A DNA stretch of 64,000 nt from Psammoneis japonica (Eukaryota), in NCBI GenBank assembly GCA_008632985.1, contig QPGO01000048.1:248001-312000 (forward strand), read 5' to 3'. A program made the position numbers and the translations under genes. Position 1 is the stretch's first letter; the number at the start of each line of letters is the position of its first letter. Under the pieces are notes generated by a model. That model searched no databases, was not told where the DNA came from, and saw nothing but the letters and a program-made list of their open reading frames with translations. Of the stretch, positions 21,604 through 51,600 are shown in pieces.

Positions 21604-24600
21604 GCAAAGGAAATGATTATTGATGTTCTTTATGCTTTTGCTGCAGACGAGAGACATCGACTAAGAACAGTGGCTTTAGAAGATGCTCTAGCTTACCCTC
21701 AATCGCACACCAACGCAGCATGCTACGGCGAACGACGCAGTTTCATTTTTGGTACTTGTTGTGCAGTCGCTGAGTGCTTTGGCCTTTGGAGCAACTTCGA
21801 GATTTCTGGGGCGAAGCGGAAATATGTTTGCGCGCTGCCCATTTGTATATTGAACGAAGCGTACACTACGTAACCCGTACACTTTCGTCTCATTTTTGGA
21901 AATGATTGAGTGTACTATAGATGTAGGCAAGCAATCTTAGATCAACGCTTCCTTAAAGTTTGATTTTTAGTCGAAGTAGCACTTCAATGACGTGCGAGTT
22001 CTGACGGTTTCGCCGTAAGAGCACCTTGTCCTTTGAACTAGGTTCTAATCGTAAAAGGCATGGGGATGTGGATACTTATAGATTGTGAGAGTGCGTCTCA
22101 CACGCTTCGAAACAGACCTAATGAGCATCGTAGCACATTAGATTTGGATGACGGTACTCTTCCGTACCATGCAGCCACTCTCTAGAGGTTGAAAAATCCA
22201 GGTTCTTCAGCAGCTAGAGAGCAGTTGGTAGTGAAAACTGGGACACGGCTTGTAAATCTGTGTGAAGATTCACATTCCTTCTGGGAGAGGTAGAGCAGAC
22301 AAGTGCCAGCTAGAGAGTTGGTGATCAAGGTGTTTCCTTGCCTAAGAAGCAGAGCAGCGGGGCGTGAGCTGGGTGCATGAATGGAGTCTGTTCTTCGTTT
22401 CTGTGCTCTTCCCGCCACAATTTCATGCACTGGCACAAAAAGATTGTCACTCCACATGCTTCTTAATGATGCAGTGTGATGAGTTTCCAATGCATGACTC
22501 CCACATGGGACATGCCTGACAGGCTCACAATTTCCTGAACAAAGTGGTCACATGGGAACAGAATGATGGACCAAAAGTGGGCCAGTGCCAGAGTCACACC
22601 CACAGCGTGCCTGCCCACAGAGGCAAATCTCAAAAATGTGTGGGTGGTTGTCCCTCATGTTCAATGCAGTCTTCTTGTGAAGGAAAATGCAGCCAACTCA
22701 AGTGCAACTCACTTTTCCTGTCTTGATGCTCCCACAATCTGAAATGCTTGCAAACGCTTGCTCAAACTTCCTCTCAAGCCTGTGCCACATGAAGCTCTTT
22801 GCCATCTTCTCCATTGCCACCCTTGCTTTGCTTCAGCAGCTCACAATGTCTTCTTGGCAAACTTTGCTGCATGTGAGGGAAGCATCTTCATGGTGAGCAA
22901 GACCAGCACTGAGCTCAAACCACCTCTGACACCCTCCAGCACCTTGACATGACCATCAAGGATGATGCCTGCAACAAGGCTTGCACACTCCCAGCATGAC
23001 TTTGCTGCAGAGGCTGGCTGTGTCATGGGCAACCTTGGTGGTCTCCTCAGTTGCCATGCTCTCTCAATGAGAGTGGAGAGTGCAAAAAGCTTTCTGACCA
23101 AGGAGGCACAGGACAGTGTCACTCAGGTCAGCAAACAGTGCAAAACAGCACAAGCTTTGCAGCATGCCCTTTTGCCAAGCACTGCCACTCCTCAGGACCT
23201 CTCTGTGGACTTGTTGATGCAAGCACAGTCAATCCTCAAGCTCTTGTCTGGAGATTGTGTCAATGTCCTTTTAGAGACACATGGGCATCTTTTTCTCCTT
23301 TCAATGGAATTGGCAAAGCCACTTGCAAGTTGGTTGTCTTTTTTTACCACCTGCTTCCACCTCTTTTGTTTCTTGCCTCACCTTGCTGAGATTGCCCTGC
23401 TGCTCTCCATCCATTTGTTTCACAAGACTGCTGTGCACTGACATCTCTGCCCCTGTTGCAGCACTGTCACACTGATTGTGAGCATGTGATTCTTCAAATG
23501 TCAACTCATTTTGCCTGCCAGCCCTTTGTTGCATGTTGCATCTCTCACTGTCTGCATCTTGCAAAAGAAAAAGTTTTCACCTTCTTTGCTGACATGTTTT
23601 TGTCAATCTTGGGATTGTTGTAAATTGCACCCCCTTTTGTCAAGCAACAAAGAATTTTTGTGAAGCAACAGTCACTTGCTGTCACAGTTCTTTCAAAACA
23701 TTTCATGTTTCAAGGTGTCTCCATTTGACTTCAATGTTGCTTGGCATTTTCTCTGTTCTTGTGTGGAAGTTCTGTGTTGTTTTGCACTGCAAAACAGCCT
23801 GGGAGAAGAGATGCCAAGGGACAACATGCCAAAAGCATTGTTGCAGTTGTGTCATGTTTCAAGCCATTTTGTGAATGAACCACCCACAAGGCAGCCAACT
23901 TGATGATTCAACATGCTCTGGCTTGGAGGCCACAAAGTCCAACATTGTTGCTCTGCAGTGATGAGTCCACAAAAAGTGCAAGAAGATCCAATGCTCTCCT
24001 TTTGTCCTGCACATCTGGGGAGACAGAGGGAAAGAAACTGGGGTTGTTTCCCAGCCAGTCAGGAATGATCACAACAGAAAAAGCTGCCAGCAGCGGCACA
24101 CCTGGTTTTGTTTGTTGACATGTCAACAGACACCCCTGCCGATGGCTGTTTCTGGCCAGTTTGACACACTGGAAAATGCACACTGTGCAGCAAATTGTGC
24201 AGCCCTCTCAGCAGTGTGAACCTGGCATTCACCCAAGCAAAGCCATTCCTTTCATGATGGGTGCTGTGATGGGAACAGCTCAGTTCATGAGTGGCCAGCA
24301 GCAAAAGCCAAAGCATTCTTGCACAACAGCTGAAGTGCATCTGGCTGAGCTTTTTGTTGACTTGCACCCCTTTCCTTGCAACTTCCACCCATTTCCTCTC
24401 CAATTTTTGTTACAAAGAGTGCTCAAAAACCCCTGCTGAGACACTGTTGAGGCAGTTGTCCCAAACAGAGGACAGACTGCAAGCTCTCCTGGGAACATGC
24501 TGTGGTCTCTGCAGAAAGCAAAAGGTCTGCTGCTGCAACTCCCCAGAGCTTGCAATTCTCAGCAACATGCCAGGGGCACAGGTGGGAATGGCTCATCTTG

Positions 24601-25295
24601 ATGCTGCCAGAGAGTGGGCCCATTTGACTTTCATTGCAGTGGTGGGATCCCCCATGAAATGAAAAGCCACAGAGCCATCTGGGTTGCCACTTTCCCTTGC
24701 TGACACTCTTTTGCAACAAGGCAGCACATGCACTGGATCAAATGCTGCTGGGAAACAGATGTTGGTCCAAAACTTGCAATGTCCTTGCGAAGATGCTGTC
24801 TGTCAAATTCATTGAAACACTGGCCAGAGCAACATGACAGAAGACAATCAGATTCAAACAAAGGGGAGAGACACAGCATCAGAGCTGTTGCACAATTGTG
24901 AATTGCCACTTCCATTGGAGCCCCCAGACAGTGTGTTTGGATCCAATGGACAACAGGAAAAAGCTCACAGCAGCTGGTGCCCTGTGTGCTCAGATGTGGT
25001 TAGAATGTGTGTGTTTTGATGCACAAGATGTCATGTTCATGTCAAGCTCTGCTTGGACATGGGCTCTTTCAATGTGGTGCCCTTCTGTCAACTCAAAACC
25101 CATCTCCAGCCACTTGGCATTGAGGGCAACAACCAAACAACATGTGGCTTCCTCTTCATTGTCAGGGAAAGAGTCTGTCAGTTTTTCAATGGGCAGTCCA
25201 CTGGCGCACACACACACAACAGACCAAGCAACCAAGCCATGACAGCTGGCATGACATGGACAGCTTTGTCTGTGGCATCCCAAACAAAAAATGGA

Positions 25296-26540
25296 AAAAG
25301 AGAGTCTGGCTTGGTTTAATCTGCACTCTCCAGCAACTGAGCGGTGCCGGCAAGAAAATGCCAGAGTCAGTGCTGCAGCCAGCTCTTGTTGTTGCCAAGA
25401 GCAGCACTCTGACAGCATGATCACATGCTTGTCAACCAGCAGATCAGTGTGTTGCTGCCCAGTCATGCAACCACAGGTTGGAAGTGGAGGCTGGGATGGC
25501 ATCAAGAAAAGATGTCATGGGCTGCAGATGCTGAATGAGTCCACAACTTTGCCATCAGATGCCTCACCCACAGCGTGTCCAGCTGCAGCTGCCTTGGTGG
25601 GAATGTTGCATCCAAAATGGAAGTGTGAACAATGACTCTGTCAGGTTGGCAAGGCAACCGTTCTTGTGCCCACTCCAAAATCTTGCAAACTTGCTGGTTG
25701 TCAAAACTTGATCAACAAAGGGGTGTGTTGGCCCGCTCAATTGTTTGCCTTTGTGCCAACTTTTCCACTCCTGCTGGACCCCTGCCACTCCATCAGCAAT
25801 GATGGCATGTGGACATGCTGTCTGGTCTCACAGTGCATGAAAGAACTGCGTGGGTGACACCCGCTTTCCACATCTGTTTTCTCATGCCTGGTGGCTCCTT
25901 CACTGGGGAAGAAGGAACAGACATTGAAGGCTTTGGTTCACTTGCAAAATGCCACTCTTGTCCAGACAAATGAGTTTGATTGCTCCACTCTTGAAGGGTG
26001 AGCTCTTTCAAATGGAAGGAGAGAGTCTGGTTTGGGATGTCTGCACTCAGCAGTGACTGAGTGGTGCCAACAAGAAAATGTGAGAGTCAGTGTTGCTGCA
26101 GCCAGCTGTTTGTTGTTGCCAAGCAGAAAAGCACTCTGGCAGCATGATTGCATGCTTGTTCACCCCAGCAGACCACTGTGTTGCTGCCCCCAGTCATGTG
26201 ACTGATGTCTCTCCAACACAGGGATGTGAGTGGAGGCTGGGATGGCATCAAAGGATGTTGTGAGTTGCAGATGAGTCCACAGCTTGGCTGTCAGATGGCT
26301 CACCCCCAGCATGTCCAGCTGCCATGTCAACTCTGTCAGGTTGGAAAGGCACGTGTGTTCTGATGCTGCCCGCTCCAAAATCTTACAAACTTGCTGGTTG
26401 TCAAAACAACCAATCAACAGAGGAGTGTGTTGGCCAATTCAACTGTTTGCCTTTGTGCCACTTTTGCACTCCTGGACCCCTGCCACTCTGTCAGCAATGA
26501 TGGGTTGCAGACATGTCTGGTCTCACAGTGCATGGGTGAC
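25296..26540. repeat. Diverged direct repeat of about 550 bp (25296-25860 and 26019-26540), possibly LTR remnants
   Basis: Shared blocks gagagtctgg..tctgcactc..caagaaaatg..agagtcagtg, gtggaggctgggatggcatcaa, aacttgctggttgtcaaaac, ctggacccctgccactc, gtctggtctcacagtgcatg. Confidence 0.85.
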
Positions 26541-26589
26541 AAGGCACAGTCCAGGGTGCTCTTGACCAGACAATTGAGTTCAGTCTGTT

Positions 26590-28000
26590 GCTCCATTCTT
26601 GATGGGAGCTCTTGGCATCTCCCTGCCAATTCTTGGAATTTAAAACCTTGGGTGACCACTTGGAGTCTTTTCTTAAACCTGGCTTTGTCAAACAGCTGGG
26701 GCAGGTTCTTGAAATCAACACTGGGTTTGTTGCAAAGAAATTCTTCATCCAAGACTGACACATGCCATCAGAGTCAGGATCATCACCTGAGACTTCCATT
26801 CTGTCAGCCATCAGACAAGGACAGTTGGCGCCATCTTCTGAATTTCTGGCAAAAGAGAAAAACCAACCCCCCACAGAGTTTTGGGCAGGAGATGGCAACC
26901 AAAAAGGATCTCCAGCAAGTGCTTCATGATGCCAAGATGGAACAAACAAGGCATCTCACAGGGCAAAGATCCAAACATGACACACAAACATTGCCCCCAT
27001 GACAGATGTCCAGTGCACAGGCTGGACAAGGTGCCAGGACAGTCCCCTTTTTGATTCTCTGGTGCATGTCTTTTTTCCATGTTTTCTCATTTCCACAATC
27101 TCAACTGCATCTTTAAACACATCAGAAATCTCTGGTTGGCGAACAAACTCACAAGCACATCTTTTGGAAGGGATTGTCCCTCCCAAGCCTTTGGGGGGTG
27201 TCACAGTGGTGATGAACTGCATGAGAGATGTTGGATGAGTGAGACTTGCAATGGCAGTGCATGATGTCATCATGGCCTTTGTGTCACCCATGGTCATGCA
27301 CAAGCAAAAGCACAGATGACAAATGCCTGGCTCTTTGCCAAGGTCCATTGGTGTCCCCTGCTTTGCTGAGGTGGTTGGGGCTCTCTGGCTTCAGCCAAAA
27401 CAAAATGAAGGGGAGCAGCATCTCAGCAAAACTTGAACAGCTCTCTTGCAAGTCCACTGCTTGAAAACACCCAGAATGAACCAGCTCTTGACAAGGCAAT
27501 GGAGACCATCTGGCATGTTTCTAAAAGTGCACAGAACTGGCTGGGCAATTGGCCCACCTCTGTTTGGTGGTTGCAAAGTGTTGAAACATCAAAAGCCAAA
27601 AGCAATGGTGGGAACAATGAAGTGAAGGCCTGGTGAGCAGCTCACACCCAATTCATCCAGGTCACATCACAGCTGTGAACAAGCTTCTTTCCATCAATCA
27701 CTCAAGGGTGCCACCACAAACATGATCATTTGGGCCTTCTGTGCTGTGCTGCTCTTCATGCAGCCACATGGCATCCTTCTGAAACTTTGTTGGATCCTGA
27801 AAAAGATGACAGGAATTGTGAAACAGTGGAAACCAGGCACATGTGTGGGAGGGAACTCAGGGCTCAGCAGCAAGCACAGTTCCTCTTCAACAAGAAGTGA
27901 GCCAGCACAAGGAAGACACTTCTTCTTCACTTGGCTCATGGCAGTTGTGTGTGATGGAATCTTTGCAAAGTCACAATTTCTCTGGGGTGCACAATGACAG
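26590..28000 (-). pseudogene. Possible Ty1/copia pol (RT/RNase H) remnant
   Basis: Weak frame-broken resemblance in the expected order: THVPGFHCFTIPV (cf. QVPG.DF.ETF.PV), LLLVHDH (cf. LLVYVDD), EVSGDDPDS..KNSVGGWFF (cf. Y.D.D...S.SG..F). Confidence 0.35.
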
Positions 28001-30759
28001 CAGAAGGACATGATGTCCTGGCACAGGCGGGTGATTCTTTCTCATCACCTTTGACTTCCACAGGATGAAGCTTTTTGGTCACTCCTGAGTTGATGTTGGG
28101 AGAATGACTGTCTTGAAGAAGAGAAACAATGGAAGCAAGGTTGATGTTGTCAGGCTTTGTGAGCTCGGGTGAACCATCCTGGACATGGCTCAAATCGTGG
28201 GTTTGTCATCAAAAGGAGTGAAGGAGGGTTCAAAGTTTTCTTGAACAAAGAATCACAATTAGATGAAAAATTTTAAGATTCTTTTGGCTGCAACCAATGG
28301 AGGGAACACTTCAAGAAAACTGTTGCCAGGAAGTTCAAGGCCGTTGTTGATTCAAAGAGCAATGCACCCATGCACAGGGCAGTTGCTGGATGAGAAGCTG
28401 CTGTTCCCTGGTTTTTTTGCAGCTGCCAACTGAGGTGGCAAGGCTGCTTGCTCTGCACAACAATGCTCACAGTGAAGCAGAGACAAGGACTTCTCCCAAG
28501 GAAACAAAGGAAAATCAACAAGGCCACTGGCAAGGTGACAAGAGGGGCTCAAGGTCAAATGTCAGTTTGGAGAGTTTTCAGAAGCAAATGTTGCAGACAA
28601 GCCCTTGGGGCTGGGGCACTGGTGCTCCACCATTGTCAACAAAAACAGAAGAAGAGACCACACACCACCAGGACTGTCAATGTCAGAGGGAATGCCAACA
28701 AGACAAAAGAGCAAGAGTCTCAGATTGGGGTTGCCAGCCAATGATGCAAAATTGCACAGAAGCCAAGCAAGCCAATGAAGCTGAGCAAAAAAAGAAGATT
28801 GGACAGAGGATGATGAACACCAAGCAAAGCAAAGCAAAGCCCCATTTTGGTTTGGAGCAATGAGTTGCAACTTGACACCAAATCTGTGGTTGTCATTGCA
28901 ACACAAAAAATGTCAGAATTGTGCCATCTTCAAGTGCAACTTGCTGTGAAAAATCACAAAAACCGATGTGATTGCACCTGCTCAACATTGTTGCAGCATC
29001 ATTTGGTCCTTGCAGCACTGCAGAAAAAGGGCCACACTGAAAATGAAAAATGTTGAACATTTCACAGATGCGCTGCAGCATCCCCTTTCTCAGAAAGGCC
29101 CTGATGTCAATCATCTTGTTGGTGTCAAAGATGTTTGTCATACAAAAACAGACAAACTCTTGTCCTTGTCACTCTGCTCTTGCTTTTGTGAGTTTGACAC
29201 ATTTTGTGATTGTTGCCATGTCATGATGTGATGTCATGCTCTTTGAATCTTTCATCACCCAGCTTTGATTTGGCTGTGCTGCCACATTGTTCTTTGTCCT
29301 GTCCCTTGACATTGTTGCTTTCTTCTTGTGTCTCTGTTTCTGCATTTCTGGGTGGCAATGCACAATCTCCATCACTCACAACTGGCAGCTTGTTTGCATT
29401 TCTTTCATCTGAAGCCATGAGTTCAAAGTTCTGGGGCTGTTTGCACCAGCAGCATGATCTGCCATGATGGTGGCAAGTGAGGGAGTCAAACCTCCAACAG
29501 CTTGTGCCAAGTGATGTCCTGTTGCCACTGGGTCTGACATTGGCCACAGTGTTGCAGGAGGAAAGGCCTCTGTGAGCCATGCACGCATTGAAGCACTCTC
29601 CAGAAACCATGGGCAATGCCAACAAAAATTGAAAAAAGAAGAAAGAACAATGCTGCTGCTTGCCACTCCAATGATGACAACCACAAGAACTGGGCTGAAG
29701 TTTCCCGTGCTCAGCTCTCCAGTGGTTGTTGTGAGCTTGTGACTGCACTTGTCTGACAAGTCCGCCAGTGTGCTCACAAAGATTTTAGCCCACACCAAGC
29801 CCCAAAGCAAGGTGAAGCCCTGCTGACCACAGCATTGGAAGCCAACAAACCTCCTGCCATCAGAGAGTGCAAGTGTTCTTCTGCAGAAGCTTGCAAGATG
29901 GGGTTGATGTGCAATTCCTGCAGTCTCTGTGTGGATTTCATCATCCAAGTCACAATGCTTGAGGCATGTTCCAGAGTCCTGCTTGCCAGAATCCCAAAAA
30001 GAGAAGGAGCTTGCTGACCCTCTGTGCTTCCAACTGCAGCCAACTCAGCAGCAATTCACAGAACAAAGCCAACAATGCCACCACCCAAGGTCACCATGAT
30101 CATGCAAGAAGACCTGTGCAACCCCAATTTAGAAAATGAATGGCTCTCCAAAACAAAAACAAGAGGGGACATGAGACCTGCATGGATGAACCCCACGTGA
30201 GTTGTGCAACAGTCAAGAGAGCTGGCAAAATCCACCCAAGAGCTTGATCACAGCAGGATGGGAGGCATCCTCTGTGCAAAAGGCAGGTGCCACCATGAGA
30301 GACATGGAAAGCTCCAAAACCTGCTTGAGTCCACAAAATGTTGCCAATGCATCCCAAAATCATTTTCCTCCTGCAACAGGGCACCAAGGAGCTGAGTGTG
30401 GGGCTGTTGGGAAGAACAAAACAAGGGCTTCAGCCCACTTTCAGAACAAAAAGGCAACACTCAATCGTTGACTTTGAAGTTTTGCTGCCAAACAGCAGCC
30501 AACAAACAGCGCCAACCTGTGCTGCATTTTGCCTCTCAAGCACTGACTTGTTCTTGGCAGAAAAGAAATGAAGTGGCAAGCTGCAGCACTCTTTCTGGGA
30601 CAGGAGTGAACAGAGCCACACCAATTTTGCTGCGTGACTCTCTGCTGCAGAGTGGAGACCTCATGAGCGCACATGCAAAACCACAAACCACAAAGATCAC
30701 GCCTTCTCTTGCCAAGGTGCCCACAAATCCAAGCTTTCCAATGGCCTTCGTGACACCCT

Positions 30760-31620
30760 TTTCATCCTAGCCCAAACTTTGGGGCCCCTTGCTCAGCTCT
30801 GCCACTCCTCTGCGGATGTTCATCTTGAACCCCTTAATTTGCTCCCCTCCCAGCCCCTCCTTTGCCCTGCCAATGTTGGCATGTCCACATCTCCTCCTGC
30901 CTTGCTTTTGGCCCCTTCCTGCCATTGCCAGGTTGCGATTGACGTCAATGCACCTCAAGCTCCTTCTTGCCCCCCCCCTGGTCTGCCTGCTCCCTCTTCC
31001 CCCAAATTAACTGAGGCACACCACACAAGCACAAGATTGAAGTTTCTTGGCCCTTCCACCTCCACTGCTGATGGTTCCCTTGTTGTTGCTTTGCTTGACA
31101 ATGACGGTGTCTTCCTTCTCCCTTTTTCACCATTGATTGCCTGGTGGTCTTGGTTTCTTTGCTCACTGCCTTCTCTTTGGCTCTATGCTCACATCCATCC
31201 AGTCTCAACCCAAGCCTCCCTGGTCCTCTCCTTCTGACTTTCAACACTCTGATGCCTCTCACTCAGCCTTTCTCTGTGCCTCATCCTCTCCATCTGCTCT
31301 TCTCCCATCGGCTGACTTTGCATGGCGTCACCTGTCCTCCGACCACTTTGGCAACACTTGTCGCACTGCCTCTCCATCACAATGGGCTCTCCAAGCCCTC
31401 AGCCACAATGTGGTCCTCCATCTCTCTGTGCATGCCCTCCAATTTACTTCAACCCTTCCTGCTCCCACATCCCCTGTCCCTTTGACTGAACGCCCTGCGT
31501 CCAGCATTTTTACTCCGTTCCACTCTGCTGGCACTCTGGCTAGAGTGGAGGGCCCTGCAGCCACTGCCGTGCCTCCTTCTGCTGTCCCCTTCCATTCTTT
31601 GTGGGCTCTTCATAACCACA
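30760..31620 (+). mobile_element. Decayed 3' fragment of the RLE-type non-LTR retrotransposon
   Basis: Aligns by eye with the reverse complement of 32750-33585 (ttcatcctagcccaaactttggg...; VHLEP.NLLP, LTEAHH.S.RLKFLGPSTS). Confidence 0.85.
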
Positions 31621-31639
31621 TGCTTTGAAAACCGCACCT

Positions 31640-32490
31640 GCCACAAGATTGCGGAGACCATGCCTTCACCTGCTCCAAAATGTACAAAGGCCCTCTCTCA
31701 AACCACATCCGAGACACTGTCTGCACCATGATTGAAACCTTGGGCCCTCTTTGCGGCCTGTGCTCTTCTCGGCAACAAGTGCACCTCGACCCTGCCAGCC
31801 TCCTGTCCAACCACCCCCTCAAACACCCCGCCGACGTAGGCGTCCAACTCACACCCGGCTCTGCACCACCCAACACCCCATCCACCCACCAATTTTTGGC
31901 CACAGACGTCACTGTGCTGCCCACCACCCCGCTTCCTGCACCTGGTTTGTCTGTCCCTGAAAACCCACTTGAAAAGGCTCACCTCAGCAGCACACGGGAC
32001 AAGCTCCTTGGTTGCTCTACATCATCTGCCAGCGGATCCGACATCATCGACGCCATCAACCAAGCCAGCCTCTTCCTTCTTCCCTTCATCCTCGACCACC
32101 TCGGCGGCATCGGCTGCCATTTCCACACCTTTTTCTTTGGCACCTCCACCACAACTTCGTCCTCCATGCCACCCCTTCCTCCTAAACCACCCTGGACAAA
32201 TCCCACCTCCTTTTCAAACTCCCAACCATCTTTTGCCGCCTGCACCAACTCACTCCTTGCGCACCCGGCGCCAATCTCCTTGCCAACTCCAACGCGGCCT
32301 GGAAACAACTCTCTCAAGAACGCTTCGGCTCTTCCCACCACACCTCAACACCATCACTTTGGGCCTCCCAAATCCTCAGTCTTAACTTCGGTTTCGCTCT
32401 CTCCACCCATCTTTCTGTGCATCAAGCTCTTCCCACTGTTGCCAACTCCTCCTCTCAACCATCTGTCCGCACTCTTGGTCCACACTTTTT
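31640..32490 (+). mobile_element. Second, more distant 3' fragment of a related non-LTR element
   Basis: CGDHAFTC..LSNHIRD..TLGPL.GLC..VHLDP..HPADVG..DVTV..LLPFILDHLGG. Confidence 0.75.
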
Positions 32491-32494
32491 CTCC

Positions 32495-32716
32495 CCATCC
32501 CACACAATGAACAAATTGGCATTTGCTTGGATGCACAAAAATGGCATTGCCACAAAGCATCATGGCGTCGCCTGGAGAAATCGAGCACACTTGCACCCGC
32601 ACAATCATTTCATTTTTCTTGGCCTGGGGTTTCTCGACGCCGTCTTCGAACGTCAAGGCATTTTCGTCAAATTCTTTCAGGTCTGGAACAAATTTGTGAA
32701 CGCAAACGGCCTTCAT
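32495..32716 (-). pseudogene. N-terminal fragment of an MDR/zinc-type (quinone) oxidoreductase
   Basis: MKAVCVHKF...LTFEDGVEKPQAKKNEMIVRVQVCSISPGD resembles the GroES-like ADH_N start; truncated after about 70 codons. Confidence 0.6.
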
Positions 32717-32744
32717 GATTGTGAAGGGGGTGTTGTTTTTTAAA

Positions 32745-35700
32745 TGGAAGATTGAGGGAGCCCATGTAGAGCGGAAGGGAACAGCAGAGGGAGGCACGGA
32801 GGTAGCTGTAGAGATGGCAGAGTAGAAGGGTTGAAGGATGCAAGACAAAGGGCGTTTTGAGGAAGGTGTGGGTGAGGAGGGAGCAGGGAGAGAGGAAGTG
32901 AATCAAAGGATGTGCGTAGAAAGGTGAAGAACGACGTTGCAGCCAAGAGTTTGGGTGGCCCACTGGGGTGGGGTGGCCGCACGGCAGGTGCCCCCAAAGC
33001 GATCGGCGGACAGGCGACGCCATGCGAAGTCAGCGGAGGGAAGGATGGCAGACGGAGACGACAAAGCGTAGAGAAAGGCGGAGTGGGAGGCATCGGAGTG
33101 ACGAAAGTCAGAGGAAGAGGACCAGGGTGGCTTGGGCTGAGAGCAGACGGAGGAGGATGTAGAACCAAAGAGCAAGCGGTGAGCAAAGCAGCCGAGACCA
33201 CCAAGGTGATCTACAGTGAAGGGGAGCAGGAAGATGCCATCGCTGTCAAGCGAAGAAACAACAAGGGATCCATCGGCAGAGGAAGTGGAGGGGCCAAGAA
33301 ACTTCAATCTCGCGCTCGAGTGGTGTGCCTCAGTTAAAATGGGAGAAGAGGGAGCAGGCAGACCTGGAGGAGGGCGAGAGGAAGCGCGAGGGACGGCGAC
33401 GTCCACTGCAATGTGGTGATGGCGGGAGGGAGCGGAAAGGGAGGCGGGAGGGGGAATTGAGATGCCGACATCAGCGGGATGGAGGAGCAGGCGGGTGGGG
33501 AGCAGGTTGGTGGGTTCAAGATGAACGTCATTGGGGGATCGACAGAGCTCTGCAAGAGGACCCAAAGTTTGGGCTAGGATGAAAACAGCATCACGGAGAC
33601 CATTGGAGAGCTTGGACTTGTGAGCACGGCGGCAAGAAAAGGCATGATCACCACAGGCATCCAGGATTGCATGGCCACAGGGACAGGGAGCATTGACAAG
33701 GGACGGAGGAAGGATGGGGAGATGAAGCTTGCGAAGGGCGGCAATGATGCAGGCATCCGAAGAAAGGCGGGAGCTTGGGAAGTGACGGGAGAAGGAATGA
33801 AGAGGGAGGCTTGCAAGCGGAGACAGCAATGAAGGGAGCGAAGATTGCACGTTGAAAGATGAGTTAGCAAGGATGGAGGCAACTGCTTGCTGCTGATGTT
33901 CATGGTGGAGGCAACGAGCCAGGCCAGGAAGAGTGGCCGATTTAACCAGGGCAGCCAAGGAAGAAGAGGAAAGGGCAGAGGCGGAAGCCAGAATGGGAGC
34001 ACAACGGCGGAAGAGCGTGTGGAGTCACAGGGAAGAGCGAGGGTTGGACCAGGAAGACAGGGAGAGCCGAAAGCAGCGTGGAAGGGAAACAGAAGCGCCA
34101 GATGGCAGGCTGACACCGTGCGAAGCAAAGCGGAACGAGTGGAGAAGCGACACCAAGAAGGAAGGAATGGCAGCAGCTGTTGGATCTCGGAGACCAAACC
34201 CACCTGAGGAGGCAGGAAGGAAGGCGATGGCAATGGAGTGGTCAGGAAAAGGAGCGGCGAAAGAAGTGACATGGTGAAGGAAGCGGTGAGCAACGGCGAG
34301 GAGGAAATCTTGAAATGGAGAGGTCCAGAGAAAGGGGTCGGGACGGGTTCCAGTCCTGGGTGGGACTTTTTGTGACATTTGCCCTGTAGAATTCTACGTG
34401 CGAGCTCTGTGGTTCATACTCTGGTCAATGGATGCATTTGTCTTCGACATGAAATGAACGGCCAAGTTTGCAGCACATGTGTCTCTGTTCGTACTCAAAG
34501 TTTTGGACAACACGCCTGCCCTGCGCCATTCTTAAGACACTCGAGAATGGCGTAGAAGAAAAAAATGTTAAAAGTTGCTGAATGGATCGCCTGACATTTG
34601 CACCACAAAATGATGCAAAATTTCGCCAAAATCACGTAGAAATCTACGTGTGCGACATACGACACGATTCAAAAAACTGTCGATGTTGCAGTTCAGCAGT
34701 GCGAGGTCCCACCTAGACCTGGAGCGCGTCTCGGGAGGATTGTCGGGGTTGAAGTTGCAGCAGAAGTCAGCCCCAAGGAGGTGAGCAGAGGATGGAACAA
34801 AACAGTGCTTGAAGAGTTGAGCCTGGGTTTGTTTGTCATGAAGACGGGTGAGAAGCATGTCAACTTTGTCGGAGAGAGCAGAGGAAGCATCGGAGAGGAA
34901 GGAGGTGGCGAAGTCGTGGGAGCCGAGGGGCTGTCCGAGGAAGCGAACACCAGAAGTGAGTTCGGGGTTGCAGGAGGGGTCATTGGTGGGGTTTAAGAAG
35001 GAAAGTGCAGCACAGAGAGGATCGGCACGGGAAGGGGGAAGAGCAGGGATGGGGCCAACACCGGCAATGGAGGTGAAGATCTTGGTTTTACGGAGGTTGA
35101 GGGAGATCCTGTGGGGAGCGCCGAGGGCGGAGAAGCGTTCAAGGAACCATGGGAGTGCGGAGTGGGGAAGGAAAGCGTGAGCATCATCAACGCAGGAGCC
35201 AACTGAGACAGAGGAACGGCCAGGGATTCGTGCTTGAAGTTCTTGGTTGATTGGACGAAGAACCAGAGAGAGGACTGGGCTGGCGAAGACAGGGCTGAGA
35301 GTGCATCCTTGGGCAAATCCCTCTTCTTGAAGAAAGGAGCCCCAGGAAGAATCGGGTCGGCGATGCCAACATGCATTGGAACTTTGACATGGAAGGTCAA
35401 AAAAAGGAAGCAGAGGATGGAAGGCAGGGGTGGAGGTGAGAACGTGTCGACAGGCATCTCGGGATGCTTCGTTGAACACATTGACAAGGTCAAGAAGAAG
35501 AAGAACCTTGGCAGAGTTGGTGGAAGAAAGACATTGCTCAATGTTGGCAAGAGCAGAGTGAATGAGATGATTGAGGCCACCTTTGACACCAATGCCAAAT
35601 TGGCCATCTGGGAGGAGATGTTCGGTGAATGCAGAACCAAAGAGAGTCATGACAACGGAGCCGGCAATGCGACGGAGAGCAGTGCCGACGCCAATGGGGC

Positions 35701-35830
35701 GAAGCTTGTTGAGGTCGCTGGCATCTTCATGCAGAGCGACAAAGCAGTTTGAAGCAAACAAGAAATGGACGGAGGGAGGAATGGAGCCATGGAGAAGGAG
35801 AAGGACAAGCTCAGCAAATTTTTCTGTGCA
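32745..35830 (-). mobile_element. Non-LTR retrotransposon (CRE-like: RT plus CCHC and restriction-like endonuclease), 5'-truncated and mutated
   Basis: LRPIGVG.ALRR, QFGIG..GG, LLDL.N.FN, QGC.LSP, CVDD (cf. YxDD), GGFGL, CPCG..LD.CGDHA..C, PADV...DV; short A-rich 3' end near 32740. Confidence 0.85.
34342..34730. mobile_element. 389-bp MITE inserted in the retrotransposon
   Basis: 25-bp imperfect TIRs (gacgggttccagtcctgggtgggac / gtcccacctagacctggagcgcgtc) flanked by tcgg on both sides; removal restores the reading NPDNPPDPFLW. Confidence 0.8.
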
Positions 35831-36851
35831 ATTTCCACGTGCCATGTTAAATTCTACGCAGCCTTGGCACTTGTGCAAAGCACCTCACGATGTGTCGCTC
35901 CCCGCTGATGCTCACCATGGCACCGATGCATTGTCGTTTGTTGCACAGCACTGAACAGGATTTGGTCAACTTCCGTGCAACGGGGTTCACACAAAAGCGA
36001 CAAATCACAGGAGTGAAGTGCAACTGCCAAGGGAGAGAATCTTTAAGTGTCAAAACTGAGCTGACTTTGCAGAAGCAGCGGCCATCAAATTTGCTGCACG
36101 CGGATCCCCACCTTTCCGTCTTCATTGAGCGCGACAATGGAACAGGCTGCTGGGCACATTTTGCCATTCTTGTTGAAATGACATGATTCCACAATCATGT
36201 GATCGCCCAAGGCCCCCAGACAATTGTTTTCAAAAGGCTGGGAATCCAAAATGAAGCAGACAAGACAAATGGTTGAGTGTTCTTGGAGAGCCAACAAGAG
36301 CGGATTGCCCAAGCACCAATCAGGAATCAGGTGCTTCTTGGAAAAGCTTCCAGAAGGCACTCACCAAAAGCAGACATGAGCACAAATGAAATTTGTCCAA
36401 AAGCATGTTGCACTTCCCTTCCAACAACCAGCTCCACACCGAAAAGAACCTTTCGTGTGCTGCCTTTAAAGAACTCGGTGCAAGAACATCCTGCAGGCAA
36501 TGATCCAGTTGGTCTGGCATCCCTTGGAACGGATGCACATGCTGTTGAAACCCATGGCAGGACGTGGGAAAAGAACACAAAGGAGTGTCTCATCCATCAA
36601 TCCAGAACAAGCCCGAGTCTCAGCGCGCTCGGGTTGGTTGAGCATCGTTTCCAGGCATTCCAAATCCAGATGCAACAAAGAGGAGTGTTGCATCAACTTG
36701 AAAGACTTCAATTTCACTCCTCCATCCAATGTTGTTGACATGTCGAAAGACAAGGCAAAATGAGGGGTGAGAGCTGACACCACAAGAGCGAAAGAAGTCA
36801 AAGGAACAACGAGTCACAAAACAAAGAACGAGCACACCACCGGACAATGTG

Positions 36852-36913
36852 ACGACCACAAACGCACATTGCCAGGGTGACAACGACCACAAACGCACAT
36901 TGCCAGGGTGACA
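36852..36913. repeat. 31-bp tandem duplication
   Basis: acgaccacaaacgcacattgccagggtgaca twice. Confidence 0.9.
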
Positions 36914-37358
36914 ACTCGACTCACACTCTGTCACCCATTGCTCATGCTCATGTTGCAATGACAAAATGCTGCACATTGGAGTGCAAACCAAAAAAGAAGG
37001 TGAAACAAAAGAAACAAAGTCAAAGGATGACAAAAAAAACGAGTCATCACACCACTTCAGTCGACAACACATTTTGCAACACGCACGGCACTTGTCGAGA
37101 CTGGGCCAATGCTTGCACATGACATGGACAAAGAACATGAATCTCGTGCATGACTCACCCCACAAAAAGACGCGACGACGACGGTGCAAACAACGCAACA
37201 GCGCCATGGTGTCTGCGAGAAAAAATGTGCAGAGGCTGGCACAAAAAATTGGTCTGCAAGTTGTTCTCCGCTTCTTGATTTTTGCTGGCTGGCCAATTTC
37301 TGCTGAAAAATGCAACGATCCGTGGGAGGTCTTTCTCTTCCTCTTCTTCCTGCACCAA

Positions 37359-37892
37359 CAAATGATGATTTAATCTTGATTCATTATTTTTAAACCATGA
37401 TAAACTTGGACGGAATTTTGGTTGTAAATGTAACCATCCCGCAAATAATAAAACACATGAAAATAATAATAAACCTACTGCACCTGTATATAACTCTTGA
37501 TTAGTTCTAAATCCGATTGTATACCACCATTGGTATACACCAGAAAATGCAATATTAACTGGATATGAATTACCTTTACTAAATGCTTTTAATGCAGATT
37601 CGCCGAAATGCGGATCCCAAATTGAATGAGCAATTGGTTTAACTTTTAATGGATTAGTTACCCATTTTTCAAAGTTTCCTTGCCAAGCAACATGGAATAA
37701 ATTACCTGCCGTCCATAAGAAAATAATAGCTAAATGACCGAAATGTGAAGCAAAAATTTTTTGATATAAATTTTCTTCAGTCATTCCATCATGTGCTTCT
37801 AAATCGTGAGCCGTTGCAATACCATACCAAATTCTTCGTGTTGCTGGATCTTGAGCAAGGGCTTGGCTAAACTTTGGAAATTTAGTTGCCAT
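37359..37892 (-). pseudogene. psaB: Truncated photosystem I P700 apoprotein A2
   Basis: [30 protein letters not shown]...[11 protein letters not shown], then unrelated sequence. Confidence 0.95.
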
Positions 37893-38044
37893 AATTGTTA
37901 GATGCCTTTTTATATAATTTTTAGTTGTAAATAAAAATATTTAATAAAATTCTTACGACTTGTTTCAAATGCTTGCGTGAGTGTTTTTTTGCACATTTGC
38001 ATGATCTAATTTTGTTGATCATGTCATTAAAAAACATTTTTTTG

Positions 38045-40299
38045 GCTCGTTGAAATAGCACGTGCTAAAAAGAATGACCATGTTGTACCAATACCACCAA
38101 GTAAGTAATGTGCTAAACCAACAGCACGACCTTGTGTAATACTTAATGCTCGTGGTTGAATTGTAGGAGCAAAATTTAATTTATTGTGTGCCCAAACGAT
38201 TGATTCGATTAATTCCTGCCAATAACCTCTTCCACTAAATAAGAACATTAAACTAAATGCCCAAATAAAATGTGCGCCTAAGAAAATTAGGCCATATGCT
38301 GATGAAGCTGATCCGTAAGATTGAATTACTTGAGATGCTTGTGACCATAAGAAATCACGTAACCATCCATTAATTGTAATAGAGCTTTGTGCAAAATTTC
38401 CACCAGTTATATGTGAGATATTACCATCAGGCGTTATCGTTCCCCAAACATCAGATTGCATTTTCCAACTAAAGTGGAATATTACAACTGAAATTGAATT
38501 ATACATCCAGAATAAACCTAAGAATACATGATCCCAACTTGAACTCTGACATGTACCACCACGACCTGGACCATCACATGGGAAACGGAACCCTAAATTT
38601 GCTTTATCAGGTGTTGACCTTGAGCTGTGTGCACATGAAACACCTTTTGGCAAAATTGGAGCTGTTGCGTGAGCTGCAAAAGCATGAATATGATGAACCA
38701 TAAAATCAGCTGTACCTAATTTAATAGGCATCATTGCAATTTTTCCACCAACTTCAACAACTTCACCTCCAAATGCATAACTTGTTGTTGCTAAAGCATT
38801 TGGTGCTGTTGTTCCAGGAGCCAATAAGTGAATATTTTGAATCCACTGAGCAAAAATTGGTTGTAATTGAATTGCTTTATCAGAGAACATATCTTGAGGA
38901 CGTCCTAATGCTCGCATTGTATCATTATGTATATAGAATCCGAAAGCATGTGTCCCTAAAAAGATACAAACCCAATTTAAATGAGAAATAATAGAATCTC
39001 GATGTCGAGTTGCGCGGTCCAACAAATTGTCACAGTTGTCTGCTGGTGTATAATCACGAACCATAAAAATTGCACCATGTGCTGCGCCACCAACAACACA
39101 AAAGCCACCAATCCACATGTGATGTGTAAATAAAGAAAGTTGAGTTGCGTAATCTGTTGCAATAAATGGATACGGAGGCATTGCATACATGTGATGAGCA
39201 ACAATAATGCTTAATGAACCTAGCATTGCTAAATTAATTGCTAATTGAGCATGCCATGAAGTTGTTAGAATCTCATATAAACCTTTATGTCCTTCACCTG
39301 TGAAAGGACCTTTATGCGCTTCTAAAATTTCCTTCATACTATGTCCAATTCCCCAATTTGTTCTATACATGTGTCGGCGATTATAAATAAAACTGATAAT
39401 GCTAAATGATGATGAGCAATATCACTTAACCATAATCCACCCGTAATTGGATTTAAACCGCCTTTAAATGTTAAAAAATCAGAATATTCACCCCATTGAC
39501 CACTGAAGAAAGGAGCTAATCCTTTATTAAAGCTTGGATATAATTGACTTATTAAATCACGATTTATTAAGAACTCATGAGGTAATGGTATTTCTTGCGG
39601 TGCAACTCCTGCGTCTAATAACTTGTCAATTGGTAAAGCAATATGAATTTGATGACCAGACCATGATAGACATCCTAATCCTAATAACCCTGCTAAATGA
39701 TGATTCATCATTGATTCAGCGTTCTGGAACCATTCTAATTTTGGAGCTGCTTTATGATAATGGAACCAACCACCAAATAGCATTATTGCAGACATTGCTA
39801 ATCCACCAATTGCAATCCAATATAGTTCCACTTCACTAGGAATTCCTTCAGCTCTCCACATTTGGAACCAACCAGAAGTTGTTTGAACACCTTGGAAATT
39901 ACCACCAACATCACCATTTAATATTTCTTGACCAACGATAGGCCAAACAACTTGAGAACTTTGTTTAATTCCAATCGGATCCGTTAACCAAGCCGAATAA
40001 TTTGAGAAATAAGCGCCATGAAAATGCATACCACTTATCCATAAAAAGATTATTGCTAATTGTCCAAAATGAGCACTAAAGATTTTACGAGAAACTTCTT
40101 CCAATGAATTAGTTTGACTATCAAAATCATGAACATCTGCATGCAAATTCCAAATCCAAGTTGTTGTTTTTGGACCTTTTGCTAATGTTCGTGAAAAATG
40201 ACCTGGTTGTGCCCATTTTGCAAAGCTAGTTTCGACAGCATCTTTTTCAACAAAAATTTGTACATTTTTTGTGCGACGATCAGTTGAGCTTATTGCCAT
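38045..40299 (-). pseudogene. psaA: Photosystem I P700 apoprotein A1 with a frameshift near 39375 and mutation clusters
   Basis: Two overlapping ORFs cover full PsaA; IAGHMYRTN reads GCC GA CAC ATG (1-nt loss); [12 protein letters not shown] intact; stop apparently read through. Confidence 0.95.
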
Positions 40300-40572
40300 T
40301 ATTTTTCTCCTTGATGGGAGACGAAAATTTATGAAACTCTCATATAAGAATAAAAAAGGAATAAAATGTAATATTGCCTAACTTATGAGTTTTCAATGTT
40401 TTATTATACGTATTTTTCTGATAAATTTTCAATTTTATGAAAAAAAGAAATCATTTAATTGTGCTAAAAAGAAATTTATTGAAGAAGATTGGAAGATTTT
40501 CTTTTAGGCGACAAGCAAAGGGCTAAAATCAAAAGGTTCCAGCGGTGTGAAGAGGACACAAAGACACAAGAG

Positions 40573-41185
40573 AATGGGCAATCGACCACGGGCACAACGA
40601 AAGAATCGCAGAAACAGAAGAAAAAAGAACTCGATGAGAAGCTGGTGCTTGCCACACCCTCTCAAGAAACTCTGGAGGAGCTGGCGGTTGCATGCACAAC
40701 AAATCCAAGCCCGGGTGACACACTCCAATGCGCCTTTTGCCTGAGCAAGTCGGGTGAAAAATCGGAGCTTCGACATGCTGTCACAATCCTGGATGGCTTG
40801 GTCAAGGATGGACGCGAACATCAGTGTGGCTGCATGCGCTCCAGTGCTGTGGCATTGTGTCTTTTGAAAGAATGCGATGATGCATGAGTGAGTTTGCAAT
40901 GTGCAAGTTTGACTCGCGGGGAAGTGTTGGCGCACTTTCGTTTCTCACATCATGTTGTCGCCTCTGTTCATCTGTCTGGTCACGGTGCAAAGCAATCCCA
41001 AGAACAAGGCCTGAGAGTTGACTGGCAGCTGAGCTGCATTTGGCGTGCACAGCCGGAGCAGAACAACAGGAGGCAGAACAAGTCAAGAAAATGGCCGTTG
41101 GAGGGACAGCTGCAATTGCTGCGGTTGGAGCAGTTGCTGGTGTTGCTTCCATGATGATGTCCAAAAAGCAGCCAACATGGCTGAG
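40573..41185 (+). pseudogene. FIS1: Fis1-like (mitochondrial fission TPR, tail-anchored) mutated copy, with intron remnant at about 40888-40975
   Basis: T.QCAFCLSKS...AVTILDGL...CMR.SAVALCLLKECDDA / SRCKAI...P.S..A.ELH / C-terminal MAVGGTAAIAAVGAVAGVASMMMSKK. Confidence 0.7.
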
Positions 41186-42775
41186 AAGCCTGTTTGTGCT
41201 GGAGAGGAACGCACACTGCAGCCTGAGAAAAGCCAGTTTCTTTGGATGTGATCCAGCTCTTTGCTGGAACCGGTTTCTGTTTTTCTAGTCGGAAGCAAAG
41301 ACGAAACGACAATGGGCACAAGAGAGGGATTGCGAAATCTTTCGCATTGGTCGATCAACCTCAGAATGAATTCACAGGCAGCAGAAACAATCTGACCACC
41401 CCAGCTTTCCCAAAGAGAAAAGGGATCCATTGGCCTGACGGCAACAACAGCTCCGGCGGAGATCTCGTTTGAATTGTCCAATGACTGCAAAACCCCCAGT
41501 TGTAAAGGATGCTTGCGCGTTGCTGTGGAGCTGTCGTTTGGAGTGGAAGGAACAAGATTCAATGTTTTGCCATCCTGTTGCAATGACACGTCGATCTTGA
41601 ACAGCAAGAAACACAAAATGATCGTTGCTTGTAAATCCAGTCTCTCTAAAGAGACCTTGCCACTGTCACAGCTTGAATGGTTTCGTCCGTGCTCCGCCGC
41701 AGCAGCGCAACTCGCGTTTCCTGGCTGCTGATGAAGCTGCTCTAGACAGTGTCACTGGTTTGAATGGACTGGCTTCGCAAGTGCTCCACTCGATGGCGCA
41801 TCTCGCGTTTCAAGCATGACTTTCCATGCGTGTCACTCTTGGATTGTCACGAAGAATTGTGGTGCTGACATGTTGCTTGAGATCTTTCTGCTTCATTTTC
41901 CTTGCGACGCTTTGCCTGCATTCGTTGGCTGTTGTTTGAGCTTTGGTTGTCGACAAAGCCAGTTCAGTTGTTGGTTCTTTCGTCATGGTTGGCAATTGAT
42001 GATGGAGCCAGCGTTGATCGCCCTTGAGCCCTTGAGCGACAACCGAAACAGCTTCGAATTTTGTGCCCGGCCCGACAACCTCACTGGATTGGCCCGCTGC
42101 TAGACTGCCTGCATTGTGCACAAGCGAGAGGGCTGCCACTTTAATGTTGCATTTCAACACCCCAATCAGCGGCCATTCGTTCTGTTTGCTGATTTGTGAA
42201 ATGAAAAATGGCACGCTGCAACCCAAACCAGCGCACGCAACACAGAACTCTTTGCTCTTGTGTGCTGTGTGCGTGCTGTTTTGTTGAAAATGTGAGTCGC
42301 CATGACTTGACTTTTTATGGTCCTTACAAATGTGAATGTTTGAAATTGCAATTCAGGGGCATCTTTCCTCGCTCAGGGTTGACTGCCTGCAGGTCCTGCA
42401 GTTTGATCTTCGTACACAAAAATTCAATTTTTCGTCGTTGAAATCAACAATTTGATTTCGGTGCAAAACACTCATGCTGTGTGCACACACGTGATAATTT
42501 TTCTTGCAGAAAGCTGCAATTTGATCTCGCAGAATGAGCATTGGTGGCGGATGCAGCATTCAAAAGTGCTTGCATGGCGGCAAAACAGAGGAATGATGGC
42601 AACGATTTGTGGGTGCGATCGCAGATTCAAATCCATTGTTCACATTTAGGGATTGAACATCAATGAATCAAAACCCCCGCTTTGTCCCCTCCTGCCATCT
42701 ACAATTCCCCATGGCGCACTCCTCGCCGCCCGCCACCTTTCTTTGTTTCTTGCCTTCAACTCATGCCACCCAACG

Positions 42776-44337
42776 ATGTTCTCTAGTCCTGCTCCTGCTC
42801 GACGTTACTCCAACGTCCCAACCGCTCAATTTCCCACTCCCGGCGGATTCACCTCGGCAGGCACTGCGTCGACGTCTGCTCACCGCAGTGTTGGATCAGC
42901 TCCGCAGATGGAAACCAATCCGTTGCCAGGGAATGAGCAAGTGCTTCTAGTGATCACGTCGAAGGAATGCATCATGAATGCAGCTCCGAATGGGCTCGGC
43001 GACGATGATGCGCAGCATGTGCTCCAAGTCGGGAACGACAGGCACGAGACCCGCATGTTTCTGGAAGATGTGACACTCGGCAACCCTCTAAGAACCGGCT
43101 CCACGCTCGCCCGCCTGAAGAATGGGCTGAACAAGTCCAAGACACTCATCCCTTTTGTGAGGGAAAACATCAAGAAACAGATCCTTGAAACCGAGAAGCA
43201 CCTCAACGACCTCAAACAATCAGAGATGGTCGTTGCGGAGCTGGAAGCCGTCACCGTCCCAGAGGCTAGCACCGCATTCAAAACAGCCATGGCCCTTCAC
43301 GGCGGAGAGAAATGTCCAAAGATCACCTGTGATTTCTTGGACAGGCATTTCATCATTCATGATGAGGTCAAAGTTGAATCAATCTCATCTGGCACGCACT
43401 TGAAGGAACCATGTCACTGTGTTCCCACGTCATTTGCAAGTGCCGAGCATCTTTGCATCCGTTCTCTCTTGACATTGCAGAGAAGTTTGCTGAGACATCT
43501 GATGTTACTACGTGGGATGACATTGATTGCAAAGACGGTGAAGAAGGTCTTTCAATCTTGAGCTTCATGGGCTCCAAGGCAAGTAAAAACGCAGACTTCT
43601 CCAGGAACGTGGATCATTGCCGTGGCCTTGGAATCATCGGACCCGACTTTCCTCGTGACTGCATTGTCGGGTCTAGAATGCACACCGAAGACACGATTCG
43701 TGGCCTTCTTGGTGTCTACCTTCGTAAGCTCCCTGAAGACAAGCTCCACTGCACCTTCACTCCCCGCAAGCAGGGTGAACTTCCTGGGAATTGCTGGATG
43801 CCCAGGAATGCCAACGCTCCTCCTTCCGCTGTCATTCAACCGACCAACCAAGCTGTTTCGACACCTGACATTACCACTGGCTCCCCGAGTGAGTTTCTCT
43901 GTTGAGTGTCATTATCGTGTGCTACAAACATTTGCTAACATTCTGACCTTGCTTTCTTCTTAAAAGGTGAAATCGCTGCTCAAATCCCCCTCACGTCGTG
44001 GAACGACATTGAGCAACTTGAAGCGCAAGACAAAGGCCGCACCGTGCTAACCACTCTAGCAACCGGTCACTACGAGCAAAATCCTCGTTTCACGGTGATC
44101 CTACAAGGCCTCATTAGTCGTGGGGTCCTTCTCAGTGCTTTTCCTACCGATGCGGTTATTCACCACGAAAACCTCCCGACTGCAGTTCGCGTGGGTCTCA
44201 TCGGAGTATACCTTGATCTCCTTCCGAAAGAAGCTAGTGATCACCAGTTTGATCACAGGATCACGGACAACACGAATCCGTGGAGCAAGGTGGCCCGTGG
44301 CCGCGGAATGGATGCGGAAGCTGAAGATCATCTCTGA
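42776..44337 (+). pseudogene. Three-exon orphan gene with internal repeat; 5' part TpA-depleted
   Basis: Open exons with intron-like gaps (about 43366-43480 and 43888-43966); repeated unit TWDDI...FP.D......T.R.L.GVYL..LP. Confidence 0.5.
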
Positions 44338-51577: not shown

Positions 51578-51600
51578 CTTCTATTCATGGTCTAGACGAT

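Follow-up and report, generated by a model that had tools for sequence, protein, structure and literature searches.

The closest described counterpart of the process considered here was reported in 2026 by Mettrop et al. for the chlorarachniophyte Bigelowiella natans, where integrated DNA of nucleocytoplasmic large DNA viruses (NCLDV) and of virophages undergoes TpA-directed hypermutation (bioRxiv 10.64898/2026.01.13.699255). According to the part of that preprint on which we draw, two integrated viral regions mutate ~1,000x faster than the remaining genome in mutation-accumulation lines, and 230 of the 231 mutations in the viral regions were A>G or T>C, all reported at TpA; the TpA-depleted coding sequences are enriched for reverse transcriptase (RT) and DDE domains, and the authors propose an ADAT2-like protein as the agent. 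We report that a nuclear chromosome of the diatom Psammoneis japonica carries a similar trace. The DNA analysed, hereafter the window, comprises 64,000 nucleotides (GenBank assembly GCA_008632985.1, contig QPGO01000048.1, positions 248,001 to 312,000; coordinates below are those of the window) and holds an island in which TpA (TA) is nearly absent and TpG and CpA (TG and CA) are in excess. The best overall explanation, to which we assign a probability of about 80%, is a locus-limited mutation of TpA to TpG or CpA at the DNA level with overlaid decay of CpG. An original prediction, made from the letters alone, had known of no description of such a process in diatoms. The process as such is shown experimentally in the B. 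natans preprint; our literature search found no report of TpA-directed hypermutation in diatoms, and beyond B. natans no other report was found.

As far as the text of the preprint available to us goes, the two cases share A>G and T>C changes at TpA that give TpG and CpA, a limitation to certain regions, loss of TpA with gain of CpA and TpG as the long-term trace, RT genes among the TpA-depleted sequences and single-copy targets. They differ in the host, a diatom (Stramenopiles) here and a chlorarachniophyte (Rhizaria) there, and in the degree of saturation, with an observed/expected ratio (O/E) for TpA of 0.02-0.17 here against a Rho of 0.45 in the B. natans NCLDV region. The targets differ as well: here they are a retrotransposon nest, plastid-derived DNA and DNA of unknown nature, viral genes not having been found, whereas in B. 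natans they are integrated viral DNA. Moreover, loss of CpG accompanies that of TpA here, while the available preprint text does not mention CpG, and a minor ApA context is seen here, while the A>G and T>C changes of the B. natans viral regions are all reported at TpA.

Repeat-induced point mutation (RIP) of fungi resembles the present case in that it is a local, near-saturating transition hypermutation that ruins mobile DNA and leaves a dinucleotide signature. RIP, however, changes C to T mainly at CpA, thereby making TpA and lowering GC, whereas in the island TpA has been lost at constant GC; RIP also needs duplicated DNA, whereas blocks A and D of the island (see the list below) are single-copy at 80% likeness. 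Decay of CpG through deamination of 5-methylcytosine, changing CG to TG or CA, would account for the CpG loss of block A and for the partial loss elsewhere, but it cannot remove TpA. The APOBEC3 and ADAR enzymes of animals likewise make deaminase-type transitions against mobile or foreign nucleic acid, and ADARs prefer a 5' U; they act on single-stranded cDNA or RNA with strand-biased G>A or A>G changes, in contrast to the changes seen here on both strands of resident chromosomal DNA. Finally, 5-hydroxymethyluracil (5hmU) in dinoflagellates, another alga of the Stramenopiles-Alveolata-Rhizaria (SAR) group, is a TA-preferring base modification on silenced transposons; it differs in being a modification of thymine, and no mutational outcome is reported in the part of the source used here (PMC11572971). 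The features of the island are as follows.

22465-30670, no strand assigned: block A, single-copy DNA of no identifiable origin, TpA O/E 0.03, CpG O/E 0.07.
25289-26534, plus strand: diverged tandem duplication of ~700 bp within block A, 73% identity.
30674-31517, plus strand: retrotransposon copy c1, 5'-truncated, 3' domain only (tblastn with homologues P0001-P0008).
31650-32503, plus strand: retrotransposon copy c2, 5'-truncated, 3' domain only (tblastn).
32906-35824, minus strand: main retrotransposon copy c3, with RT and a C-terminal Cys/His-rich domain (RVT_1 match, TpA O/E 0.13-0.17).
34339-34733, no strand assigned: insertion of 395 bp resembling a miniature inverted-repeat transposable element (MITE), with 28-nt terminal inverted repeats (seen in the sequence and as a gap between tblastn pieces).
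35891-37359, minus strand: block C, repeated, 2 TA (summed depth ~1,300; none in the plastid-only runs).
37360-40506, minus strand: nuclear plastid-DNA insert with the whole of psaA and the first ~200 codons of psaB (plastid contigs of runs X2 and X3, PsaA matches).
37971-38035, no strand assigned: hypermutated patch in the psaA-psaB spacer of the insert (13/13 listed differences are plastid A/T to window G/C).
38612-39040, minus strand: hypermutated patches inside psaA of the insert (17 of 18 amino-acid departures from six diatom PsaA).
40507-43505, no strand assigned: block D, single-copy, TpA O/E 0.10, CpG O/E 0.74, depth 71-153.
42650-43561, plus strand: open frame of 303 codons in block D, without relatives.

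TpA is near-absent at 22,465-37,359 and 40,507-43,505 (O/E 0.02-0.17, against ~0.6 in the flanks), which bears out the island as originally described. In 2-kb windows TpA O/E was 0.49-0.97 in the flanks, 0.02-0.17 at 22-36 kb and 0.19-0.26 at 40-44 kb, TG and CA rose to 1.3-1.9 within the island, and CpG O/E in the flanks was ~1.0. The edges, set from counts in 500-bp and 250-bp windows and from a list of TA-free runs, are sharp on the left (22,465) and lie at ~43,505 on the right, where TA density recovers gradually over ~43.5-43.9 kb. The longest TA-free run is 1,067 bp; at the flank TA rate the probability of a run of 800 bp is ~e^-35. The contiguous trace of TpA loss measures ~18 kb, to which two separate patches of ~0.8 kb are added.

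Taking the flank rates per kb as reference (TA 44.4, CG 56.4, TG+CA 141.5), TA numbered 16 against 364 expected in block A, 13 against 82 at 30671-32510, 23 against 133 at 32900-35890, 2 against 65 in block C and 19 against 133 in block D. CpG was erased as well, but only at 22756-30465 (O/E 0.07; 31 CG against 463 expected in block A), and over the 13 kb from 30.7 to 43.5 kb the two losses are uncoupled. The gain of TG+CA nearly balances the deficit of TA+CG: 701 against 779 in block A, 90 against 94 in block C and 136 against 143 in block D. Since GC is unchanged and the gain of TG/CA matches the loss, the island has the appearance of DNA once composed like the flanks, whose TA (and, in block A, CG too) was turned into TG/CA. 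The trinucleotide losses in the saturated blocks were graded, with ATA reduced 230-fold, GTA 46-fold, CTA 21-fold and TTA/TAA 7-fold, and 13 of the 17 TA that survive in block A are preceded by T. Variation in TG-versus-CA skew among 500-bp windows of block A is slightly above binomial by a hand estimate, and we do not claim strand-coherent tracts.

GC-biased gene conversion, or a recombination hot spot with an overall AT>GC bias, would act in the direction seen, from AT to GC. To this reading we give next to no weight: GC is 0.48 in block A and 0.476 in the flanks, the dinucleotides AA, TT and AT are not depleted in the island, and ATA fell 230-fold at constant A/T content. Among the listed changes in the plastid insert, 13 of 14 are at TpA. 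The spectrum is thus not a uniform shift from AT to GC, and the preference for TpA is strong, though within this sample it has exceptions.

The direction and context of the change are recorded in the plastid insert, for which the organism's own plastid contigs give the ancestral state (run X1 at a depth of ~960, and the low-coverage runs X2 and X3). The X2 and X3 plastid contigs cover 37360-40506 and diverge beyond both ends. The PsaA encoded by the insert is 93-94% identical to its best matches, and the best structure matches are four photosystem I PsaA chains, which we take to be from diatoms. X2 differs from the window at 63 places (47 on the two long pieces of plastid DNA, 15 on a piece of 79 bp that lies on the MITE); at 55 of them the window has G/C and the read A/T, the reverse holds at 2, and 6 are transversions. 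At the 14 insert sites listed letter by letter, on which all plastid contigs agree, plastid A/T has without exception become G/C in the window; plastid TpA became TpG or CpA at 13 and the context was ApA at 1 (P for at least 13 of 14 at a background of 0.40, 5.9e-5). The 65-bp spacer patch accounts for 13 of these sites, 12 of them at TpA, and retains one TA; the fourteenth, at 39627, is also at TpA.

A second view of the same insert comes from its protein. Compared with six diatom PsaA, it departs at 18 of 415 invariant columns, which form clusters at residues 128-138 and 249-270. Among the A:T>G:C changes deduced from these codons, 11 of 16 are at TpA and 5 at ApA/TpT; the further changes comprise one CpG>CpA and two that are unclear, and a conservative binomial calculation (11 of 17) gives 2.9e-4. 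Over 38557-39094 a plastid contig differs from the window at 27 places. TpA is accordingly the main context, with ApA as a minor second, and the 6 non-TpA A:T>G:C changes seen in the insert are all at ApA.

The ApA changes bear on a reading in which thymine at TpA is modified, e.g. to 5hmU by a TET/JBP-type dioxygenase, or in which a WA-biased Y-family polymerase carries out the repair, giving T>C and A>G. TA and AA together make up the WA motif of polymerase eta, and spectra of this polymerase contain many A>T and A>C changes. Nearly all changes seen here are transitions, as the X2 comparison shows, and the saturated blocks show no shortage of ApA or TpC (AA O/E 1.2-1.3). To our knowledge 5hmU pairs with A and is not known to yield a clean T>C change. 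In favour of thymine modification, dinoflagellate 5hmU prefers TA and TC, lies on transposons and is made by TET/JBP homologues, according to the part of the source used here (PMC11572971). Taken together, we regard modified thymine or an error-prone polymerase as an unlikely origin of the trace.

DNA present once in the genome is affected too. At 80% likeness only 30.7-37.4 kb is repeated, whereas 24.0-30.7 and 40.7-44 kb are single-copy (contig depth 64-105 in block A), and the earlier description of a repeat island therefore applies to the former interval and not to the latter two. The ORFs of block A gave no Pfam family above cut-off, and a Pfam scan of 26 and 86 open reading frames (ORFs) of the island returned only RVT_1, with nine weak matches (E 0.006-0.047) all under the curated cut-offs. 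The 303-codon frame of block D had no Pfam match, no Atlas match and 0 matches among 1.84 billion representatives. A self-comparison in purine/pyrimidine code (36-mers), aimed at hypermutated duplicates and at the ends of the island, yielded only repeats that had been found before. The identifiable mobile or foreign targets are thus the retrotransposon copies, the MITE and the plastid insert, and blocks A and D (~11 kb) are without identifiable origin.

The tandem duplication within block A adds evidence on timing. Double differences in which one copy reads CA and the other TG lead with 11 cases, every other class having at most 2; in two intra-island duplicate pairs they number 11 and 19 (other classes at most 5), and in two flank repeat pairs 0. 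Such differences are expected if an ancestral TA or CG was resolved independently to TG or CA in each duplicate, which means that the change postdates the duplication.

That the island might be foreign or viral DNA that evolved under selection without TpA and CpG, as in some viruses that suppress UpA and CpG, agrees with the lack of recognisable genes or relatives in blocks A and D. We nevertheless hold it to be very improbable: functional genes are at odds with an O/E of 0.02-0.03 and with proteins devoid of Tyr, the mass balance takes a flank-like composition as its starting point, and the plastid insert and the retrotransposon have TA-normal sources and were changed from TA to TG or CA. The CA/TG double differences likewise date the change after duplication.

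The element at 30.7-35.8 kb is a non-LTR retrotransposon (LTR, long terminal repeat), as shown by its RVT_1 match, its lack of LTRs and its 5'-truncated copies; self-comparisons of the window found no LTR pair. RVT_1 in copy c3 scored 37.1 bits (E 3.6e-9) against a cut-off of 29.6, its homologues are 35-45% identical, and its C-terminal Cys/His domain presumably resembles a restriction-like endonuclease. Many copies of the family occur in the genome (summed contig depth 760-34,767). The region of copy c1 forms an inverted repeat with 32758-33649. To judge from its position, block C, which gave no match to any protein, may represent the 5' part of copy c3.

Tyr has nearly vanished from this element, as the original prediction had stated: the RT frame of 438 amino acids contains none, and the main copy has 1 Tyr in 905 aligned codons, compared with 2.4% in the homologues (range 1.5-3.7%). 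The 11 positions at which most homologues have Tyr hold Cys (4), His (3), Phe (2), Leu (1) and Ser (1). Cys is the product of TAY>TGY and His that of TAY>CAY, and their near-equal numbers indicate that both strands were hit. The predicted replacement of Tyr by Cys or His thus agrees with 7 of the 11 sites, while replacement by Arg, also predicted, occurs at none of them.

Use of both strands also speaks against hyperediting at the RNA level, i.e. A-to-I conversion in double-stranded transcripts followed by reverse transcription into the genome. Inverted element copies at 30.7-31.6 and 32.8-33.6 kb could form double-stranded RNA. ADARs belong to animals, changes on both strands occur together in single patches and among the Tyr codons (4 Cys against 3 His), and single-copy DNA and the plastid insert were altered in place. 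The Discussion of the B. natans preprint, as far as it was available to us, notes that ADARs favour U before the edited A (bioRxiv 10.64898/2026.01.13.699255). On balance we give RNA hyperediting very little credence.

Other copies and relatives of the element also indicate TA-richer sources. At 18 listed sites over 32.9-36.3 kb, where the window was compared with other genomic copies, 6 have TG or CA in the window and TA in the majority elsewhere (4 in the MITE, 2 in the RT), 7 have TG or CA in the window and CG elsewhere, 1 is a CpG case in the opposite sense and the remaining 4 are of other kinds. In the RT stretch of metagenome relatives, TA O/E was 0.44-0.88, compared with 0.13 in the window, so that the relatives are not equally TpA-poor; 23 of 27 loci were measured, the four shortest matches being left out. 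All 23 have a sense-strand G skew of -0.15 to -0.5, and for this reason the strong strand skew of the element is considered a native trait. In one relative (L005:2401-2893) the RT match includes a run of 493 bp free of TA, with a TG O/E of 1.62, and some of the nearest RT relatives may be partly hypermutated copies in other organisms. The proposal of a region-limited mutator of TpA to TpG/CpA, distinct from CpG decay and opposite in direction to RIP, is accordingly backed from three sides: the insert against the plastid contigs, the window against the majority of other genomic copies at the 6 listed sites, and the double differences between intra-island duplicates.

The bases themselves are supported by contigs from sequencing runs. 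Logan contigs of X1, at a depth of 64-78, the same as that of the flanks, agree with the window over 24001-30790 except for 0-2 differences; in one of them another 2,437 letters precede the first aligned base. The assembly looks less faithful at the plastid insert. A nuclear-depth contig (78.3) has 48 differences from the window over 37863-38468, where the window holds 51 TA, and another (71.5) has 30 over 40231-43478, in the insert part of which the window holds 22 TA. At the listed insert sites ~78 of a depth of 1,041 keep the mutated letter of the window; the listing threshold for differences was 10%, and the positions of the nuclear-contig differences in the insert fall below it. These data suggest that conversion of the actual nuclear insert is almost complete and that the assembled one is a mosaic polished with plastid reads. 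The same caution applies to the MITE, which splits the RT frame, keeps ~11 TA and is absent from a run contig that joins 34337 to 34731. Thus, although insert and MITE do appear spared in the assembly, as originally noted, this may be an assembly effect, and their seeming sparing is unusable for dating.

A sequencing or assembly artefact, e.g. systematic miscalls at modified bases, could draw on this plastid/nuclear mosaic, which suggests that artefacts exist at the locus. We consider such an origin of the island barely credible, as the X1 contigs reproduce the sequence at flank depth, the amino-acid replacements are coherent with TA>TG/CA, and the suspected artefact restores TA and so works against the signal.

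Some points weigh against the explanation preferred here, i.e. TpA-directed mutation with overlaid CpG decay. The nearest RT relatives are rather TA-poor themselves (0.44-0.6), which leaves room for a native share in the deficit of the element. For blocks A and D there is no outgroup; the direction proposed for them rests on the mass balance and on the CA/TG differences within a single internal duplication. The insert differences seen letter by letter are 14 of ~47, the 18 element differences are likewise a sample, comprising only those listed in that way, and the ancestral codons of the insert PsaA were deduced from amino acids. X1 may be the source data of the assembly and would then not be independent support. 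Moreover, insert and MITE as assembled keep most of their TA (237 in the insert), which would mean either that the process is now weak or episodic or that the assembly is a mosaic. With these points considered, we still find it very probable that a TpA-directed mutational process acted here.

As to the mechanism, we propose that A:T>G:C transitions at TpA, on either strand, have run near to saturation over ~21 kb of a diatom nuclear chromosome, and that CpG decay to TpG/CpA was overlaid, complete in the oldest block and partial elsewhere. Of this, the composition, the direction and dinucleotide context of the changes, the involvement of both strands and the extent of the region are demonstrated by the present data. 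The CpG decay would most simply stem from deamination of 5-methylcytosine in methylated, silenced DNA; alternatively, a dual A/C deaminase might be its source. Enzymatic deamination of adenine in DNA agrees with the clean A>G and T>C changes, the requirement for a 5' T, the clustering and the occurrence on both strands, and tRNA adenine deaminases act on A following U. A candidate agent would be an ADAT2/TadA-like enzyme that deaminates DNA adenine preceded by T. That an adenine deaminase is the agent is tentative, and we put it at slightly short of an even chance. Such an enzyme might be directed to fresh insertions or to a chromatin domain that bears a mark, and would thereby serve genome defence, a role for which the chances seem about balanced; the same has been proposed for B. 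natans.

The ORFs of the flanks are ordinary eukaryotic genes, among them a thiolase whose named relatives are all diatoms (69-75% identity). No deaminase or polymerase was found among the flank ORFs, in keeping with the earlier remark that no responsible enzyme is visible in the window. Two TA-free patches lie apart from the island, both with a CpG O/E of ~0.45.

52674-53467, no strand assigned: separate TA-free patch in the gene-dense flank, 0 TA against 35 expected, beside a CS-domain frame.
58429-59309, no strand assigned: separate TA-free patch between ordinary genes, 1 TA against 39 expected.

Further repeats were observed in these parts. A direct repeat pair of 490 bp (51308-51787 and 54965-55450; 91% identical, TA content normal) brackets ~3.2 kb that hold the first TA-free patch, the CS-domain frame and a frame of 372 codons that had no Pfam match. 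Sequence at the right edge of the island (44032-44232) recurs as a diverged direct repeat (73%) at 49692-49871, immediately upstream of an amine-oxidase frame, and the flanks also contain an imperfect palindrome of 185 bp (80%) at 48965-49149 and an inverted repeat pair of 45 bp (98%) at 17068-17368. With regard to the MITE-like element, it has internal GTAGAAWTCTAC palindromes and an extreme copy number (summed contig depth up to ~150,000, compared with 64-78 for single-copy DNA). A marine metatranscriptome (run X5) was also considered; it covers only the psaA/psaB stretch, at 80-95% likeness, and was set aside as plastid transcripts of other organisms, uninformative on transcription of the island.

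The diatom island represents a further case of a process first reported in 2026 in an unrelated alga, to which it adds saturation, concurrent loss of CpG, ApA as a minor context, and targets that comprise plastid DNA and a retrotransposon nest. Editing of TpA to saturation abolishes Tyr codons and the stops TAA and TAG, and with these stops gone long spurious ORFs arise in such islands. The islands also conceal a mobile or viral origin from homology searches, and polishing with organelle or high-copy reads can mis-correct them. Plastid inserts in hypermutated domains, in turn, serve as a built-in outgroup from which direction, context and timing can be read. Since transformation and knockouts work in several diatoms, the enzyme, possibly a natural DNA adenine editor with a two-base context, would come within experimental reach. 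We consider it doubtful, yet worth stating, that diatoms and chlorarachniophytes share one position-targeted, SAR-ancient defence by DNA editing in chromatin domains; its agent would be a natural double-strand, TpA-specific A-to-G (perhaps also C-to-T) editor of a new class of DNA adenine deaminases, acting to saturation on any DNA in or entering a marked domain, including organelle DNA. If confirmed, the island would make diatoms the second lineage with TpA-erasing hypermutation and P. japonica the first diatom; given the wide distance between diatoms and the first lineage, the process would then be either old and widespread among SAR algae or have evolved repeatedly.

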